Positions 248 to 10,418 of a stretch of DNA of 64,000 nt are shown here, piece after piece. The DNA lies in contig HF990416.1 in assembly GCA_000432775.1 (NCBI GenBank), positions 44,683 through 108,682 on the forward strand, written 5' to 3'. Position numbers and translations under genes: made by a program. The stretch's first letter is position 1, and every line of letters starts with the position of its first letter. Below the pieces are notes generated by a model, which did not search any database, was not told the DNA's origin, and saw only the letters and a program-made list of their open reading frames with translations. The DNA comes from Alistipes sp. CAG:831 (lineage in GTDB: Bacteria; Bacteroidota; Bacteroidia; Bacteroidales; UBA932).

Positions 248-1369
248 ATGCCCGATTACAACGTCAAGAACATATCCGCCCTGAAGACCAGAATTCAGAT
301 TTTCGACAAGGTCATCGTGGTCGTATGGGTAGGGCTGATAGTCCTGCTGTACTACGATATAAGCTGGGCTGTCGCACTCCTGCTGGTGGCCCAGCTGACA
401 CTGTACATCATCCGCCGCAGGATGAAGAAGGAACTCAACCAGAAAGAGATACTGGCCAAAATGGTGGAAGAGCGCACCACGGACCTCCGCCAGGAAAGGG
501 ACAAGGTGGTACAGGAGTCCAAGGAATTGTCCGACGCCCTCGATGCCCTGGCAAAGGCCCAGGACGAGCTGGTACGCAAGGAGAAGATGGCCACTGTCGG
601 CAACCTCACCTCCGGTCTGGTCGACCGTATTCTCAACCCGGTCAACTACATCAACAACTTCTCAGGCCTCACACTCAGCACCATGCAGGAACTGCGCGGG
701 GAGATCGAATCCGTCCGGGACAGCATCCCCGCCGACAAGTATGAGGACATCTCCGAGACCCTGGCCATCATAGACACCAATCTCGGCAAGATCAATGACC
801 ACGGCTGCAACACGGTCCGTATAGTCAAGGCCATGGAGGAACTCATCAAGACCCGCCACAGCAACATAACCCTCACCGATATCCGGACCGTGTGCCGCGT
901 GAACGTGGATCTGGCCCGCAAGCATTTCGCCCAGCAGATAGAGCTCAACGGGATAGACCTGCGCCTCAACCTGCCTGTCACCCCCGTACCGGCCGAAATC
1001 AGCATCGACGAGATGAACAAGGTACTGCACCACCTCATAAGCAACAGCATCTACGCTGTCATCAAGAAGCTCCAGAAGCAGAATTTCTCCCCCGAGATCA
1101 TAATCCGCGTCATACCTCTGCCCGGAGAGCATACCGAGATATCCGTAAGGGACAACGGCATAGGCATCGAGGACACCATCAAGTCCCGCATCTTCGAGCC
1201 GTTCTTCACCACCAAGCCTACCTCAGAGGCCGCCGGAACCGGTCTCTATCTGTGCCGCGAGATGATTCTCAACCACAAGGGAACCATCGACGTGGAAAGC
1301 CGTCAGGGCGAATACACAGAATTCCGCATCACCATTCCCAACCATCAAGACACTACATCCGATGAATGA
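248..1369 (+). CDS. Membrane-anchored histidine-kinase-like protein with a degenerate H-box (phosphoacceptor His replaced by Asp), N-terminal TM helices, coiled coil and an intact HATPase_c domain
   Basis: The first ATG is at 248; the ORF track starts at a TTG at 221. There are two hydrophobic helices (VIVVVWVGLIVLLYY, WAVALLLVAQLTLYII). The dimerisation region MATVGNLTSGLVDRILNPVNY aligns with the downstream kinase's LASLGMLTAGIAHEIQNPLNF, but has D-R where that kinase has H-E. ATPase motifs are present (DNGIGI, FTTKP, GTGLYL). Confidence 0.75.
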   Translation: MPDYNVKNISALKTRIQIFDKVIVVVWVGLIVLLYYDISWAVALLLVAQLTLYIIRRRMKKELNQKEILAKMVEERTTDLRQERDKVVQESKELSDALDALAKAQDELVRKEKMATVGNLTSGLVDRILNPVNYINNFSGLTLSTMQELRGEIESVRDSIPADKYEDISETLAIIDTNLGKINDHGCNTVRIVKAMEELIKTRHSNITLTDIRTVCRVNVDLARKHFAQQIELNGIDLRLNLPVTPVPAEISIDEMNKVLHHLISNSIYAVIKKLQKQNFSPEIIIRVIPLPGEHTEISVRDNGIGIEDTIKSRIFEPFFTTKPTSEAAGTGLYLCREMILNHKGTIDVESRQGEYTEFRITIPNHQDTTSDE

Positions 1370-2204
1370 GGACTCATACCAGGAACTGGCCCGGCTGCGG
1401 GAGCAGGTGACCAAACAGGAGAAACTGGCGTCGCTTGGCATGCTCACTGCCGGCATTGCCCACGAGATACAGAACCCGCTGAACTTTGTAATCAACTTCA
1501 GCAAGATGTCCTCCAAGCTGATGGAGGACCTCGAGGACATAGTCTCCGAAGTCTCCGGCAGCCTTTCTGAGGACGACCGCGAGGAACTGGGAGAAATCAT
1601 CTCCGACCTCAAGAGCAATATCACGCGCATCGGGGAGAACGGCGAGCGGGCCTCCAGCATCATCCGCAACATCCTGCTATACTCCCGCGGCAAGGAAGAC
1701 GAATACCTGCCGACCGACCTCTGCCGCCTGACCAAGGAGTACGTCGCCCTCTCCTACCACGCCATGCGGGCCAACCACAAGAACTTCAACGTCACCTTCG
1801 AGGAGGATTACGACGAGACCCTCCCACAGGTCAATGTCATACCCCAGGACTTCAGCCGGGCCGTGCTCAACATCATGAACAACGCCTGCTATGCCGTATT
1901 CGCCAAGTCGCGCGGAGCCACTGACTGCGGCTACAGTCCGACGATAAGCATATCCCTGCGCAGGGACGGGGACAACGCCCGTCTGGTCATCGAGGACAAC
2001 GGCACCGGCATCCCAAAGGATATCCGCAGGCATCTGTTCACCCCCTTCTTCACCACCAAGCCTGTGGGAGAGGGCACAGGACTGGGTCTGTCTATCACCA
2101 AGTCCATCATCGAGCAGAAGCACCGCGGGAAGATAGAAGTCGAGTCCGAGCCCGGACAGTACAGCCGTTTCATCATCACCATTCCACTCAATCTTAAAAA
2201 ATAG
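1362..2204 (+). CDS. Cytoplasmic sensor histidine kinase (HisKA + HATPase_c), translationally coupled to the upstream pseudo-kinase
   Basis: H-box AHEIQNPL, N box LNIMNNACYAV, G1 EDNGTGIP, G2 GTGLGLSI. There are no TM segments. The start ATG overlaps the upstream stop by 8 nt (ATGAATGA). Confidence 0.85.
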   Translation: MNEDSYQELARLREQVTKQEKLASLGMLTAGIAHEIQNPLNFVINFSKMSSKLMEDLEDIVSEVSGSLSEDDREELGEIISDLKSNITRIGENGERASSIIRNILLYSRGKEDEYLPTDLCRLTKEYVALSYHAMRANHKNFNVTFEEDYDETLPQVNVIPQDFSRAVLNIMNNACYAVFAKSRGATDCGYSPTISISLRRDGDNARLVIEDNGTGIPKDIRRHLFTPFFTTKPVGEGTGLGLSITKSIIEQKHRGKIEVESEPGQYSRFIITIPLNLKK

Positions 2205-2216
2205 AAATCCGACAAT

Positions 2217-3527
2217 ATGGCACTCAAAATACTAAGCGTAGACGACGAGGTAGATTTGGAAATCCTGCTCACACAGTATTTCCGCCGCAAAATAAAAAAG
2301 GGCGAGTACGAATTTTCCTTCGCCCACAACGGGGTCGAGGCCCTCAGGATGCTCCTGGAGCACCCTGACTTCGACATCATCCTGAGCGACATCAACATGC
2401 CCGAAATGGACGGACTGACCCTGCTCTCGAAGATCAACGAGATGCGCAACCCGGCCCTCAAGTGCATCATGGTCTCCGCCTACGGCGACATGGACAACAT
2501 CCGCAGTGCCATGAACCAGGGTGCCTTCGACTTCACCACCAAGCCCATAGACCTGAACGACCTGGAACGCACCATCGAGAAAGCCGCCGAACAGATAGCC
2601 TTCGTCAAGAAGGCCCAGGAGGAGCATTCCCAGCTGGCCTCGATACAGAATGACCTGCACGTGGCCCAGGAGATCCAGGAGACCATCCTGCCCAAGGAAC
2701 TGCCGGCCTTCCCAGAAGAGGTACGCCGCCGGTTCGACCTGGCCACCAGCATGAAAGCCGCAAAATATGTCGGGGGCGATTTCTACGACTATTTCAAGAT
2801 CGACGACACCCGCCTCGGCATAGTCATCGGCGACGTCTCGGGCAAGGGAGTCCCCGCCGCCATCTTCATGGCCATCAGCCGGACCATCCTGCGCACCATA
2901 GCCCTATCCTGCCCGTCGTGCGCCGACTGCCTCCGTCAGACCAATAACATCCTCAGCAAAGACAGCGTAGAGGACATGTTCGTCACCGTATTCTACGGTA
3001 TCCTCGACCTGAGCACCGGCCATATCAAATACTCCAACGCCGGCCACAACCCTCCCGTTCTCATCCACCGCGACGGAAAGGCCTCCCTGCTCGAGCCCAC
3101 CGGAGACATCGCCCTCGGAGCCGTCCCCGACGTCCCCTACTGCGAGAAAGAGACCGTCCTGACCCCTGGAGACAGCCTGCTGCTCTACACCGACGGAGTC
3201 ACCGAAGCCATGAGCCGCAGCGAAGAGCTCTTCGGAACCGCCAGGCTGCTGGAGCTCTGCACGCAGATCTCCGGAACACTGACACCCGGCATACAGACTC
3301 CCGAAAGTTCCCATGCCGCCGATGCTGATAACACAGCTGCTGCCGATGCCGCGAATACTGCCGATGCCGCCACACCTTCCGGCCAGACCAAGACCGTCTC
3401 GACCAACCCTTCCAGGCCCACCGCACCGGACCTCCTGCTGTCAGGCATAGACACATCCCTTTCCGCCTTCACCGACGGAGCCCCCCAGTCCGATGACATC
3501 ACCCTGCTGGCCCTCACCTACAAGTAA
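2217..3527 (+). CDS. Response regulator receiver domain fused to a PP2C/SpoIIE-type serine phosphatase (RsbU/RsbY-like)
   Basis: REC motifs LSVDDE...ILSDINMPEMDG...KP. PP2C/SpoIIE motifs GGDFYDY, GDVSGKGVPAAIFMA, YTDGVTEA. The C-terminal Ala/Asp/Thr-rich low-complexity tail contains AADADNTAAADAANTADAAT. Confidence 0.85.
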   Translation: MALKILSVDDEVDLEILLTQYFRRKIKKGEYEFSFAHNGVEALRMLLEHPDFDIILSDINMPEMDGLTLLSKINEMRNPALKCIMVSAYGDMDNIRSAMNQGAFDFTTKPIDLNDLERTIEKAAEQIAFVKKAQEEHSQLASIQNDLHVAQEIQETILPKELPAFPEEVRRRFDLATSMKAAKYVGGDFYDYFKIDDTRLGIVIGDVSGKGVPAAIFMAISRTILRTIALSCPSCADCLRQTNNILSKDSVEDMFVTVFYGILDLSTGHIKYSNAGHNPPVLIHRDGKASLLEPTGDIALGAVPDVPYCEKETVLTPGDSLLLYTDGVTEAMSRSEELFGTARLLELCTQISGTLTPGIQTPESSHAADADNTAAADAANTADAATPSGQTKTVSTNPSRPTAPDLLLSGIDTSLSAFTDGAPQSDDITLLALTYK

Positions 3528-3699: not shown

Positions 3700-3735
3700 A
3701 AAAAAGTGAGAATCTTTCGATTCTCACTTTTTTTG
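3700..3735. terminator. Bidirectional rho-independent terminator (A-run, 10-bp stem, T-run)
   Basis: AAAAAAA-AGTGAGAATC-TTTC-GATTCTCACT-TTTTTTT. It lies 3' of the REC-PP2C gene on + and 3' of tRNA-Leu on -. Confidence 0.75.
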
Positions 3736-3736
3736 T

Positions 3737-3820
3737 GCCCGGAACAGGACTCGAACCTGCACAGCCTTGCGGCCACTAGTCCCTGAAACTAGCGTGTCTA
3801 CCAATTTCACCATCCGGGCA
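3737..3820 (-). tRNA. tRNA-Leu (anticodon CAG), type II with a long variable arm
   Basis: The reverse complement reads GCCCGGATGGTGAAATTGGTAGACACGCTAGTTTCAGGGACTAGTGGCCGCAAGGCTGTGCAGGTTCGAGTCCTGTTCCGGGCA. Cloverleaf: D arm, anticodon stem CTAGT/ACTAG with loop TTCAGGG, long extra arm, T arm GGTTCGAGTCC. CCA is not encoded. Confidence 0.9.

Positions 3821-3877: not shown

Positions 3878-3878
<1 letters not shown>
3848..3878 (-). promoter_or_regulatory. Bacteroidetes-type promoter for tRNA-Leu (-33 TTTG, -7 TAtcTTTG)
   Basis: The - strand reads AATTTGCGATATAC...CACTATCTTTGCAGTCCC. The 16-mer CTATCTTTGCAGTCCC is shared with the tRNA-Asn promoter. Confidence 0.5.
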
Positions 3879-8339
<4,461 letters not shown>

Positions 8340-8351
8340 ATCACAGAGAAA

Positions 8352-10418
8352 ATGAAAGAGTACAAACGTTATCTTGTCACCTCCGCTCTGCCTTACGCGA
8401 ACGGACCTGTTCACATCGGTCACCTGGCGGGAGTCTACGTGCCCGCCGATATCTACGTCAGATATCTCCGAATGTGCGGCAGGGACGTGTTCTTCGTAGG
8501 CGGCTCGGACGAGCACGGGGTGCCCATCACCATCCAGGCCCGCAAGCAGGGCTGCTCGCCCCAGGATATCGTGGACAAATACCATAAGCTGATCAAGGAG
8601 TCTTTCGCAGAGCTCGGCATCAGTTTCGACATTTATTCCAGGACTACGTCCAAGACCCACTACAAGACCGCATCCGAGTTCTTCCGCAAGCTCTACGACG
8701 AGGGCAAGTTCGTCGAGAGGGAGAGCGAGCAGTACTACGATGAGGAGGCCGGACAGTTCCTGGCAGACCGCTACATCGTAGGAACCTGCCCCAAGTGCGG
8801 CAATGAGAGGGCCTACGGAGACCAGTGCGAGAAATGCGGTTGCACCCTCAGCCCCGACGAACTGATCAACCCCCATTCCGCCCTTAGCGGCAAGCCGCCC
8901 GTAAAGAGGCGTACCAAGCACTGGTACCTGCCTCTGAACGAGTACGAGCCCTGGCTCCGCCAGTGGATCCTCGAGGAGCATAAGGAGTGGAAGGTCAATG
9001 TCTACGGCCAGTGCAAGTCCTGGCTTGACGGCGGTCTCCAGCCCAGGGCGGTGAGCCGTGACCTCGACTGGGGCATCCCCGTGCCGGTGGAAGGAGCTGA
9101 GGGCAAGGTGCTCTACGTCTGGTTCGACGCCCCCATCGGCTACATTTCCAACACTATAGAAGCCCGTCCCGATGACTGGGAGAAATACTGGAAGAGCCCC
9201 GACACCAAGATGGTGCACTTCATCGGCAAGGACAACATCGTCTTCCACTGCATCGTCTTCCCCTGCATGCTCAAAGCCTACGGAGACGGTTACATCCTCC
9301 CGGACAACGTGCCTGCCAATGAGTTCCTGAATCTCGAGGGCGACAAGCTCTCTACTTCCCGCAACTGGGCCATCTGGCTGCACGAGTACCTGCGGGACTT
9401 CCCCGGCAAGCAGGACGTGCTGCGCTATGTGCTCTGCGCCAACGCTCCGGAGACCAAGGACAACGATTTTACATGGAAGGACTTCCAGACCCGCAACAAC
9501 TCCGAGCTGGTGGCCATCTACGGCAACTTCGTCAACCGTGCCGTCGTTCTGACCCACAAGTATTTCGACGGAAAAGTGCCTGCGGACCTGAAGCCGGAGG
9601 CCATTGACTCCGAGACCCTTGCCCAGGTGCCTGCCATTAAGGCCGCCATCACCGATGCCCTTGAGCACTACCGTTTCCGCGAGGCCCTCAAGGAGGCCAT
9701 GAACCTCGCCCGTCTCGGCAACAAGTACCTCACCGACACCGAGCCGTGGAAGGTGGCCAAGACCGACATGGACCGTACTGCCTCCATCCTCAACGTGTCC
9801 CTGAAACTCTGTGCCGACCTGGCCATAGCCTTTGCGCCCTTCATCCCGTTCTCGTCCGACAAGCTCCTGAAGATTCTCAACCTGCCGGAGGATGTCCTCA
9901 AGTGGGACAATATAGGCCGGGAGGATTTGCTGCCTGAGGGACATCAGCTGGGCAAGGCCGAGCTGCTCTTCGAGAAGATAGAGGACGAGGCGATAAACGC
10001 CCAGATGGAGCGTCTGGAGAATATCCGTAAGGCCAATGCCAAGGCTGAGGCCTCTGCGGCAGCCGCAGAGGCACAGGTCGAACCGCAGAAACCCGAGTGC
10101 ACCTTTGACGAGTTCGGCAAGATGGACATCCGGACGGCTACCGTCCTGGAGGCCGAAAGGGTGCCCAAGACCGACAAGCTGCTGAAACTTACCATAGATA
10201 CCGGCATAGACAAGCGCGTGATAGTTTCCGGCATAGCCGAGTACTATACCCCGGAGGAGATGGTCGGCAAGCAGATATGCATCCTGGCCAATCTGGCTCC
10301 CCGCAAGATCCGCGGTATCGAGTCCAAGGGTATGATCCTGATGGCCAAGCAGCCCGACGGCAAGATGCGTATCGTGTCTCCAGAGGAGAGGCTCTGCAAC
10401 GGTGCGACGGTAGGATAA
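8352..10418 (+). CDS. metG: Methionine--tRNA ligase with C-terminal tRNA-binding (EMAP/Trbp111-like) domain
   Basis: The N-terminus [27 protein letters not shown] carries the HIGH motif. KMSKS-region (KLSTSRNW) and zinc knuckle (CPKCG...CEKCG) are present. The C-terminal domain reads [26 protein letters not shown]. Confidence 0.95.

Follow-up and report, generated by a model that had tools for sequence, protein, structure and literature searches.

Three genes on the forward strand of a 64,000-nucleotide stretch of DNA from Alistipes sp. CAG:831 (assembly GCA_000432775.1, contig HF990416.1, positions 44,683 to 108,682; hereafter the window) encode two histidine-kinase homologues, HK1 and HK2, and a response regulator, RR, in which a receiver domain (REC) is joined to a PP2C/SpoIIE phosphatase domain. 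They lie head to tail on one strand, and their open reading frames (ORFs) occupy the interval, 248-3527, to which an earlier interpretation of the letters without database searches (the sequence-only reading) had assigned a three-gene signalling module. In the H-box of HK1, Asp-Arg (D-R) stands where canonical kinases, including HK2, have His-Glu (H-E). The features of the trio are as follows.

248-1369, + strand: HK1, 373 amino acids (aa) when read from the ATG; a D-R family member, homologous to histidine kinases but without the His, and anchored in the membrane (ORF list)
308-415, + strand: membrane hairpin of HK1, residues ~21-56, two hydrophobic helices (~21-36 and 39-55) with a 3-residue loop, then RRRMKK (Kyte-Doolittle)
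614-640, + strand: degenerate H-box of HK1, G123-L-V-D126-R127-I-L-N130-P131, with Asp for the phospho-acceptor His and Arg for the catalytic Glu
1022-1342, + strand: ATP-binding (CA) domain of HK1, residues 259-365, with N266, D302-N-G304-x-G306, F316-x-P-F-F-T-T-K323 and G330-x-G332
1362-1369, + strand: 8-nt overlap of HK1 and HK2, ATGAATGA, with the ATG of HK2 at 1362 and the TGA of HK1 at 1367-1369
1362-2204, + strand: HK2, 280 aa, a soluble canonical histidine kinase without a sensor (ORF list, Pfam)
1452-1478, + strand: canonical H-box of HK2, G31-I-A-H34-E35-I-Q-N-P
2217-3527, + strand: RR, a REC-PP2C response regulator of 436 aa (ORF list, Pfam)
2229-2576, + strand: REC domain of RR, residues 5-120, with D58 at 2388-2390
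From residue 196 of RR, + strand: PP2C/SpoIIE domain (Pfam)
3273-3413, + strand: low-complexity insertion of 47 residues (353-399) in RR, rich in Ala, Thr, Asp and Pro, within the PP2C domain and directly ahead of its last catalytic Asp-Asp

HK1 is a membrane-anchored kinase homologue, as had been proposed. The Pfam profiles by which the sequence-only reading suggested checking the trio detected HATPase_c alone in HK1 (71 bits, 1.2e-19), HisKA and HATPase_c in HK2, and Response_reg and SpoIIE in RR. A HisKA (PF00512) match was not found in HK1 even at E<=1, and is absent from the precomputed annotation of 120 of 120 HK1 orthologues. The AF2 model of HK1 (pLDDT 78) contains helices at residues 3-36 and 39-155, a turn, a helix at 162-202 and then an alpha/beta domain, and its Foldseek matches include HK853, ZraS, LvrB and DivL (4q20) at E values from about 1e-16 (HK853 and ZraS) to 1e-13; HK1 is thus predicted to have a genuine DHp+CA fold whose hairpin is unusually long. 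The ATP-binding domain retains its N, G1, F and G2 boxes except for the first Gly of G2, which is replaced by Ala, and the earlier description of this domain as complete is correct except at that residue. Measured against a canonical HisKA kinase, HK1 has the DHp hairpin and the GHKL ATP-binding domain, but lacks the acceptor His, the acidic residue at H+1 and a match to the HisKA profile. The hydrophobic pair near the N-terminus is predicted to be a membrane hairpin without an extracytoplasmic domain. Because its second transmembrane helix aligns, from residues 31-44 on, with the lone transmembrane helix that follows the periplasmic sensor in long members of the family, HK1 is regarded as a short form without an outside sensor.

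The exchange in the H-box is a stable feature of the family. HK1 and HK2 align by BLASTP at 30% identity across DHp+CA (E=7e-39), with D126-R127 of HK1 opposite H34-E35 of HK2 (GLVDRILNP versus GIAHEIQNP), as the sequence-only reading had read the two H-boxes. In an alignment of 164 D-R cores and 148 H-E cores, D126 and R127 are conserved at 100% in the former set and His and Glu at 100% in the latter, N130 and P131 are conserved at 100% in both, and other positions that distinguish D-R from H-E sequences are Y134/F, E197/L and L200/S. Among the 120 best HK1 relatives (100% to 47% identity), which come from many independent assemblies, 115 of the 116 recognisable H-boxes carry D-R, the single exception carries A-R, and none has His at this position. 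When 1.84 billion cluster representatives were searched exhaustively without a profile, the top 150 matches gave a similar picture: 96 of them contain G-[LI]-[VI]-D-R-I-L-N-P-x-N-Y-I-N-N-F, and the remaining 49 recognisable H-boxes belong to a sister family with A-G-I-A-H-E-I-x-N-P-L-N-F-V-N-N-F. A sequencing error or a strain-specific substitution, which a His in close orthologues would have indicated, is rejected, since 115 of 116 orthologues and 164 of 164 family cores carry D-R.

A conserved His elsewhere in the dimerisation helix, the other finding that would have spoken against the exchange, was also absent. Helix alpha1 of HK1 (residues 95-155) contains no His. The only conserved His of the DHp domain is H185, in an 'EHG' sequence at the start of helix alpha2; its position is Asn in HK2, and another His of HK1, H343, falls in the CA domain. 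H185 was considered as a relocated acceptor and rejected, because it is conserved in both families (96% of D-R and 81% of H-E sequences) and is thus a shared structural residue. In the 164 D-R sequences, whose mean pairwise identity is only about 43%, N266, D302, G304, G306, K323, G330 and G332 are conserved at 98% or more and F316 at 95%, and 25 positions are invariant across 21 diverse members. Because D126 and R127 are invariant and the ATP-site residues nearly so, the D-R pair is most readily interpreted as a stable, selected state in an otherwise well-preserved kinase scaffold, and not as decay.

HK2 is intact and soluble, in agreement with the original proposal. It matches HisKA at 37 bits (cutoff 26.9) and HATPase_c at 89 bits, has the canonical H-box His-Glu, and contains no hydrophobic segment by Kyte-Doolittle analysis, which makes it a soluble, sensor-less kinase; among H-E sequences every CA motif is conserved at 100%. 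A nearest-neighbour analysis separated D-R proteins, H-E partners and other H-E kinases into three cohesive groups, and HK2 belongs to the partner subgroup, in which 265 of the 270 nearest neighbours are likewise partners. H-E partners share 42% identity with ordinary H-E kinases and only 29% with D-R proteins, and a recent local duplication of HK1 and HK2 is rejected on this ground. The two had been called clear paralogues, and they are indeed homologous; being nearer to different relatives, they are ancient paralogues, members of anciently separated subfamilies that co-occur across Bacteroidota, and not local duplicates.

RR consists of a receiver and a PP2C/SpoIIE output, as previously described, with intact catalytic residues in both domains. 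The Pfam scores are 83 bits for Response_reg and 172 bits for SpoIIE/PP2C, and the lack of a hydrophobic segment (Kyte-Doolittle) indicates a soluble protein. In an alignment of 56 orthologues, the receiver residues D9, D10, D58, S87 and K109 and the PP2C ligands D188, D191, D206, H277, D326, D426 and D427 are each conserved at 95% or more; the latter lie in the motifs GGD188xxD191, GD206VSGKG, AGH277, TD326G and D426-D427, and RR has both the receiver active site and the metal-binding aspartates expected of a REC-PP2C protein. The nearest solved structure is that of Pseudomonas aeruginosa RssB (3eq2, E=1e-28, residues 10-355). The best NCBIfam model is RR_RssB_Pseudo, and because the score of 123 bits is far under its cutoff of 700, RR is not considered an RssB orthologue. 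The low-complexity insertion is missing from more than 80% of the 56 orthologues, and members of the cluster of proteins at least 90% identical to RR have lengths of 387, 411, 430 and 436 aa. A DNA tandem repeat was considered as the source of the insertion, and none was detected.

The genes are tightly packed. HK2 begins inside the end of HK1, as noted earlier from the sequence, and the junction reads cgATGAATGAgg; the 8-nt overlap is consistent with translational coupling. The TAG of HK2 ends at 2204 and the ATG of RR is at 2217, which leaves the gap of 12 nt that had been reported. To see how widely this arrangement occurs, one genome per species was scanned with an alignment of the D-R family. 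More than 594 loci were confirmed and the best 80 retained; ORFs were called in these loci and classed by phmmer and by H-box type. The fetched loci contain 67 D-R genes, 63 of which are followed by at least 900 nt of sequence. An H-E kinase without a sensor directly follows the D-R gene in 55 of these 63 cases (234-321 aa, 54 of them 272-321 aa), with a spacing of -8 nt in 12 of the 55 pairs and within -17 to +18 nt in most, and a REC-PP2C gene is present in 56 of the 67 loci. Synteny in related Bacteroidales, which the sequence-only reading had recommended looking for, is evident: both the trio and the overlap of the kinase genes are conserved in relatives. Four layouts were distinguished.

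Layout a, Coprenecus type (the window and L004-L009): D-R (373 aa), H-E, REC-PP2C
Layout b, Parabacteroides/Tannerellaceae (L001-L003 and L010-L016): STAS, RsbW-like, D-R, H-E, REC-PP2C
Layout c, Prevotellaceae/Bacteroidaceae (about 27 loci): REC-PP2C, usually a membrane WD40-like protein (checked in L017, L021 and L040), D-R (870-990 aa), H-E
Layout d, Cytophagales and one Bacteroidales metagenome-assembled genome (8 loci): D-R (1240-1285 aa), H-E, REC-PP2C

The Cytophagales genera with layout d are Spirosoma, Dyadobacter, Larkinella, Nibrella and Hymenobacter. The D-R proteins of Prevotellaceae and Cytophagales carry a large periplasmic propeller sensor, and among seven long representatives (>900 aa) Pfam detected Reg_prop in six and Y_Y_Y in five. 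Sensor domains occur on the D-R protein and never on the H-E partner. All D-R loci with a named taxon are from Bacteroidota, and the alphaproteobacterial and cyanobacterial loci recovered by the scan are all of the H-E type.

Several loci depart from these layouts or add to them. In Hymenobacter rubidus (L071, 4082-10944), a D-R gene (1248 aa) is followed by a sensor-less D-R gene (307 aa), an H-E gene and a REC-PP2C gene, and a second, orphan D-R gene is found in the same genome (L075). Between the REC-PP2C and long D-R genes of L017 (3462-5015), L021 (3465-5051) and L040 (3708-5366), a gene that overlaps the end of the regulator gene encodes a protein of 517-552 aa. This protein has a membrane helix at its N-terminus, a coiled coil and weak matches to WD40/beta-propeller domains, and in Prevotellaceae/Bacteroidales the system may include it as a fourth component. 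A gene of about 800 aa follows a long orphan D-R sensor in L046 (7958-10468), L052 (7832-10240) and L026 (7863-10352). Pfam, applied to the first two, detected TonB-dependent receptor domains (Plug in both, and the beta-barrel too in L052), and the L026 gene resembles them in length and C-terminus; the combination of a long D-R sensor with a TonB-dependent receptor gene suggests a second usage of the family. Arrays of four to six consecutive sister-family H-E kinases (430-770 aa each), with genes for a CheY-like receiver and a ~350-aa receiver protein after them, are present in L068, L073, L077, L083 and L084 (Mucilaginibacter, Hymenobacter and Chitinophagales) and are unrelated to the D-R pairing.

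The linkage in layout b bears on the target of the phosphatase. In ten Parabacteroides/Tannerellaceae loci the trio begins 1-6 nt after a gene for an RsbW-like protein (HATPase_c_2), which itself follows a 99-aa STAS gene, and the STAS proteins contain an invariant Y-x-S-S-x-G-L-R motif, with Ile or Val at its second position, that holds the expected phosphoserine. Because the STAS and RsbW-like genes directly precede the trio in these bacteria, the phosphorylated STAS protein is likely to be the substrate of the PP2C domain. The target had been left unspecified in the sequence-only reading, and this linkage supplies a concrete candidate. The RsbW-like and D-R genes are separate, 1-6 nt apart, in the Parabacteroides loci other than L001, where the gene call joins them into one protein (8001-9527, P0029, 508 aa), either a real fusion or a missed stop and start. 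The REC-PP2C gene of L040 has a STAS gene immediately 5' of it, and this in turn comes after a gene for a 724-aa Cache-PP2C-RsbW (HATPase_c_2) fusion (51-2532 for the fusion and the STAS gene together); two different PP2C inputs may converge there on one STAS protein.

Neither gene accompanies the trio in the window. No STAS or RsbW-like gene was found in the 64 kb by tblastn, and STAS and RsbW profile hidden Markov models (HMMs) found none among all six-frame ORFs of the window (best E 0.46 and 1.1), which bears out the earlier statement that no STAS or anti-sigma partner gene is present. A STAS profile search of the protein database returned, among the 120 matches listed, Tannerellaceae-type proteins only, and none attributable to Coprenecus or 'Alistipes sp. 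CAG:831'. In the Coprenecus clade, in which dnaG or prfA lies upstream of the trio, the trio has become separated from the STAS/RsbW genes. The earlier guess that the phosphatase acts in a partner switch is strengthened by the linkage in Parabacteroides/Tannerellaceae, but by no gene in the window itself.

Taken together, the trio is, just on the probable side, best explained as a conserved three-protein phosphorelay of Bacteroidota that feeds a partner switch, in which HK1 controls HK2 and, through it, the REC-PP2C regulator. HK1 would be the input module, anchored in the membrane and, with Asp-Arg for His-Glu, not phosphorylated at the canonical site. HK2, co-translated with HK1 and devoid of a sensor, would carry the only phospho-acceptor His. 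HK1 would associate with HK2 through the DHp domains, as a heterodimer or a higher-order complex, and would set the level of phosphorylated HK2, and the CA domain of HK1 may phosphorylate His34 of HK2 in trans. The phosphate would then pass from HK2 to Asp58 of RR and switch the PP2C activity, on or off; the phosphatase would dephosphorylate the phosphorylated STAS protein, which would in turn capture the RsbW-like kinase/antagonist. From the invariant D-R pair and ATP site, the restriction of sensors to the D-R member and the tight coupling of the genes, we infer a physical HK1-HK2 complex, the direction of control and phosphorylation in trans. A heterodimer is plausible, and FasB/FasC provide a precedent for tandem kinase homologues that form a heterodimer with split functions (PMC12675982). 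Orphan D-R genes are also found in genomes that contain a full set (L032 with L033, and L075 with L071), and this co-occurrence with one full set suggests that several sensors converge on one kinase. The role of a STAS protein as substrate in this organism, and the final output, are presumed from the linkage in relatives.

Several observations weigh against this explanation. Seven D-R genes (L026, L032, L035, L046, L052, L065 and L075) lack a neighbouring H-E gene, a point against strictly obligate, one-to-one pairing such as the obligate heterodimer suggested in the sequence-only reading. Because the CA domains of both HK1 and HK2 are intact, there is no obvious catalytic division of labour. 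A partner switch in which STAS and RsbW-like proteins are encoded with the phosphatase is found neither in the window nor in the loci of the closest relatives (L004-L009), which have no STAS or RsbW gene nearby. No sigma factor gene adjoins the five-gene operons examined, although no systematic search for one was made.

Other explanations were weighed against the same evidence. The two opposing activities of a bifunctional histidine kinase might have been divided between the paralogues, with HK2 as a constitutive kinase for the REC-PP2C regulator and an HK1 homodimer as a signal-regulated phosphatase or sink for phosphorylated RR, without an HK1-HK2 complex. Several HisKA kinases, such as EnvZ and NtrB, do not need the phospho-acceptor His for phosphatase activity, HK1 keeps Asn130 (H+4) and an RR-docking sequence, I-L-N-P-x-N-Y-I-N-N-F, that is near-identical to that of HK2, and in L035 and L046 the D-R gene adjoins a REC-PP2C gene though there is no adjacent H-E gene. 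However, at H+1, where the E/DxxT/N phosphatase motif has its acidic residue, the D-R family invariably has Arg; the G1, F and G2 boxes are more strictly conserved than a pure phosphatase would be expected to need; and the conserved overlap of the kinase genes suggests stoichiometric co-production; we consider this division of activities rather unlikely. An allosteric regulator resembling DivL or RetS, in which HK1 forms its own dimer, performs no phosphoryl chemistry and binds HK2 or the receiver so as to toggle HK2 between kinase and phosphatase modes, would agree with the matching of the HK1 model to DivL and with the existence of pseudo-histidine kinases that regulate a true kinase, such as DivL acting on CckA (PMC4211667, PMC9430884). 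Near-invariant nucleotide-binding residues are unexpected if the CA domain serves merely for docking, and this proposal, which we regard as unlikely, differs from the favoured explanation only in stoichiometry and in the use of ATP.

Asp126 itself might be chemically active, which is very unlikely in our estimation. It might be autophosphorylated by the GHKL domain and relay an acyl-phosphate to His34 of the partner, in an Asp-to-His-to-Asp series started by an Asp-autokinase of a new class; or the Asp-Arg pair might be a built-in mimic of phospho-His that locks a heterodimeric kinase in the asymmetric 'one active protomer' state. Both versions are compatible with the complete conservation of Asp and Arg and of the ATP site. 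About as improbable is a new role for HK1 as a Ser/Thr kinase or some other enzyme that uses ATP, a GHKL protein of the RsbW/SpoIIAB kind with a different substrate, for example STAS, RR or HK2. The ATP-binding domain is intact while the acceptor His is lost, and a STAS protein, if this organism has one, would need another kinase, the window being without an RsbW-like gene; but the five-gene operons hold a dedicated RsbW-like kinase beside the HK1 homologue, and HK1 keeps the full DHp architecture and the RR-docking motif typical of histidine kinases. That HK1 is a decaying, non-functional duplicate or an artefact of sequencing or assembly would account for the missing His and nothing more, and is practically eliminated by the conservation described above, namely of D-R in all but one of the 116 orthologues and throughout the family, and of the 25 invariant positions.

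The trio is flanked by the following features.

3-179, - strand: 5' end of dnaG (Zn_ribbon_DnaG), divergent, 5' of the trio
216-223, + strand: putative promoter motif TACTTTTG, 25 nt 5' of the HK1 ATG (tentative)
3735-3819, - strand: tRNA-Leu(CAG), 3' of the trio
3878-5086, - strand: MFS transporter, 3' of the trio
~5124-8339, + strand: GH2 beta-galactosidase, 3' of the trio
8352-10418, + strand: long methionyl-tRNA synthetase-like ORF; the syntenic gene in relatives has class I tRNA-synthetase domains

The motif TACTTTTG fits TAnnTTTG, which we take to be the Bacteroidetes -7 promoter consensus. A scan for sigma-70 promoters and terminators found nothing on the + strand, and such a scan is ill-suited to Bacteroidetes promoters. 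An alternative start of HK1 at TTG 221 would add nine residues (382 aa). The ATG at 248 is favoured, because the motif falls within the reading frame that opens at TTG 221; HK1 orthologues are mostly 371-380 aa long and start at the Met equivalent to this ATG. In the close relatives L004 and L006, the genes with class I tRNA-synthetase and GH2 domains are on the opposite strand and an HU-CCDC81-like gene comes next after the regulator; as the order and strand of the flanking genes differ there, the region 3' of the trio has been rearranged in this genome. HK2 is identical to CCY35465.1 and RR to CCY35466.1 (both 'Alistipes sp. CAG:831'), and close relatives carry the name Candidatus Coprenecus, which NCBI places in Bacteroidales, Rikenellaceae incertae sedis.

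Pairs of a pseudo-kinase with a kinase, and pathways from a kinase through a REC-PP2C regulator to a STAS protein, are both already known kinds of system. One close analogue is FasB/FasC/FasA of Streptococcus pyogenes (PMC12675982), in which two adjacent, co-transcribed kinase homologues lie upstream of one regulator; both homologues are needed, the sensor, acceptor His and catalytic domain are distributed between them, and two-hybrid data indicate a heterodimer. FasC, the membrane sensor of Fas, carries the His that is essential and has a dispensable CA domain, while HK1 has no His, a conserved CA domain and a soluble partner. The Fas proteins also belong to another kinase family, have six transmembrane helices each and act on a DNA-binding regulator. 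DivL of Caulobacter resembles HK1 in that its acceptor His is replaced and it regulates a true kinase, CckA (PMC4211667, PMC9430884). However, the replacement is Tyr and not Asp-Arg, the genes are not adjacent and form no conserved operon pair, the output is the CtrA phosphorelay and not a REC-PP2C protein, and the retention of ATP-binding motifs sets the D-R family apart from DivL.

The five-gene operon of Parabacteroides has exactly the parts of the pathways represented by RsbK-RsbY-RsbV-RsbW (Bacillus cereus), HptB-HsbR-HsbA (Pseudomonas) and CrsR-CrsA (Shewanella), in which a kinase acts on a REC-PP2C protein and this on a STAS protein phosphorylated by an RsbW-type kinase. Those pathways differ in having one ordinary (hybrid) kinase and an identified target, a sigma factor or FlgM, and the window differs in lacking STAS and RsbW. 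RssB of P. aeruginosa shares the REC and PP2C architecture of RR, but it is a proteolysis adaptor for RpoS, and such a role is not indicated for RR. RetS, acting on GacS in Pseudomonas, and RocA, acting on CovS in Streptococcus, are kinase-like membrane proteins that modulate another kinase by direct contact, through a DHp heterodimer or through membrane domains. Unlike HK1, RetS retains the His and possesses its own receiver domains, and RocA has a degenerate catalytic domain; neither pair is operon-coupled across a phylum. No description of the D-R family or its operon was found in the literature, only the precedents in other phyla; the coverage of the literature was incomplete and the absence is not proof, but the D-R trio appears to be undescribed. 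In databases, D-R proteins are labelled 'sensor histidine kinase', 'HAMP domain-containing histidine kinase' or 'ATP-binding protein', and the first of these labels is misleading for D-R sensors.

Histidine kinases are usually viewed as homodimers in which sensing, autophosphorylation and phosphotransfer are united in one protein. A phylum that includes the abundant gut genera Parabacteroides, Prevotella and Coprenecus seems to have split sensing and phosphorylation between two proteins. If HK1 and HK2 do form a complex, it would be a natural, widespread heteromeric kinase, intrinsically asymmetric, and would offer a direct way to test cis- against trans-phosphorylation as well as half-of-sites models. 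The linkage to STAS and RsbW-like genes also uncovers in Bacteroidota a putative partner switch (STAS/RsbW/PP2C) driven by a two-component system, and because this phylum, to our knowledge, has no sigma-B/F-type factors, its output is probably something new. Cultured Parabacteroides species hold the full five-gene operon (L010-L012), which makes experiments feasible; the interest of the D-R trio lies in this tractability, in its breadth and in the invariant replacement of His-Glu by Asp-Arg.

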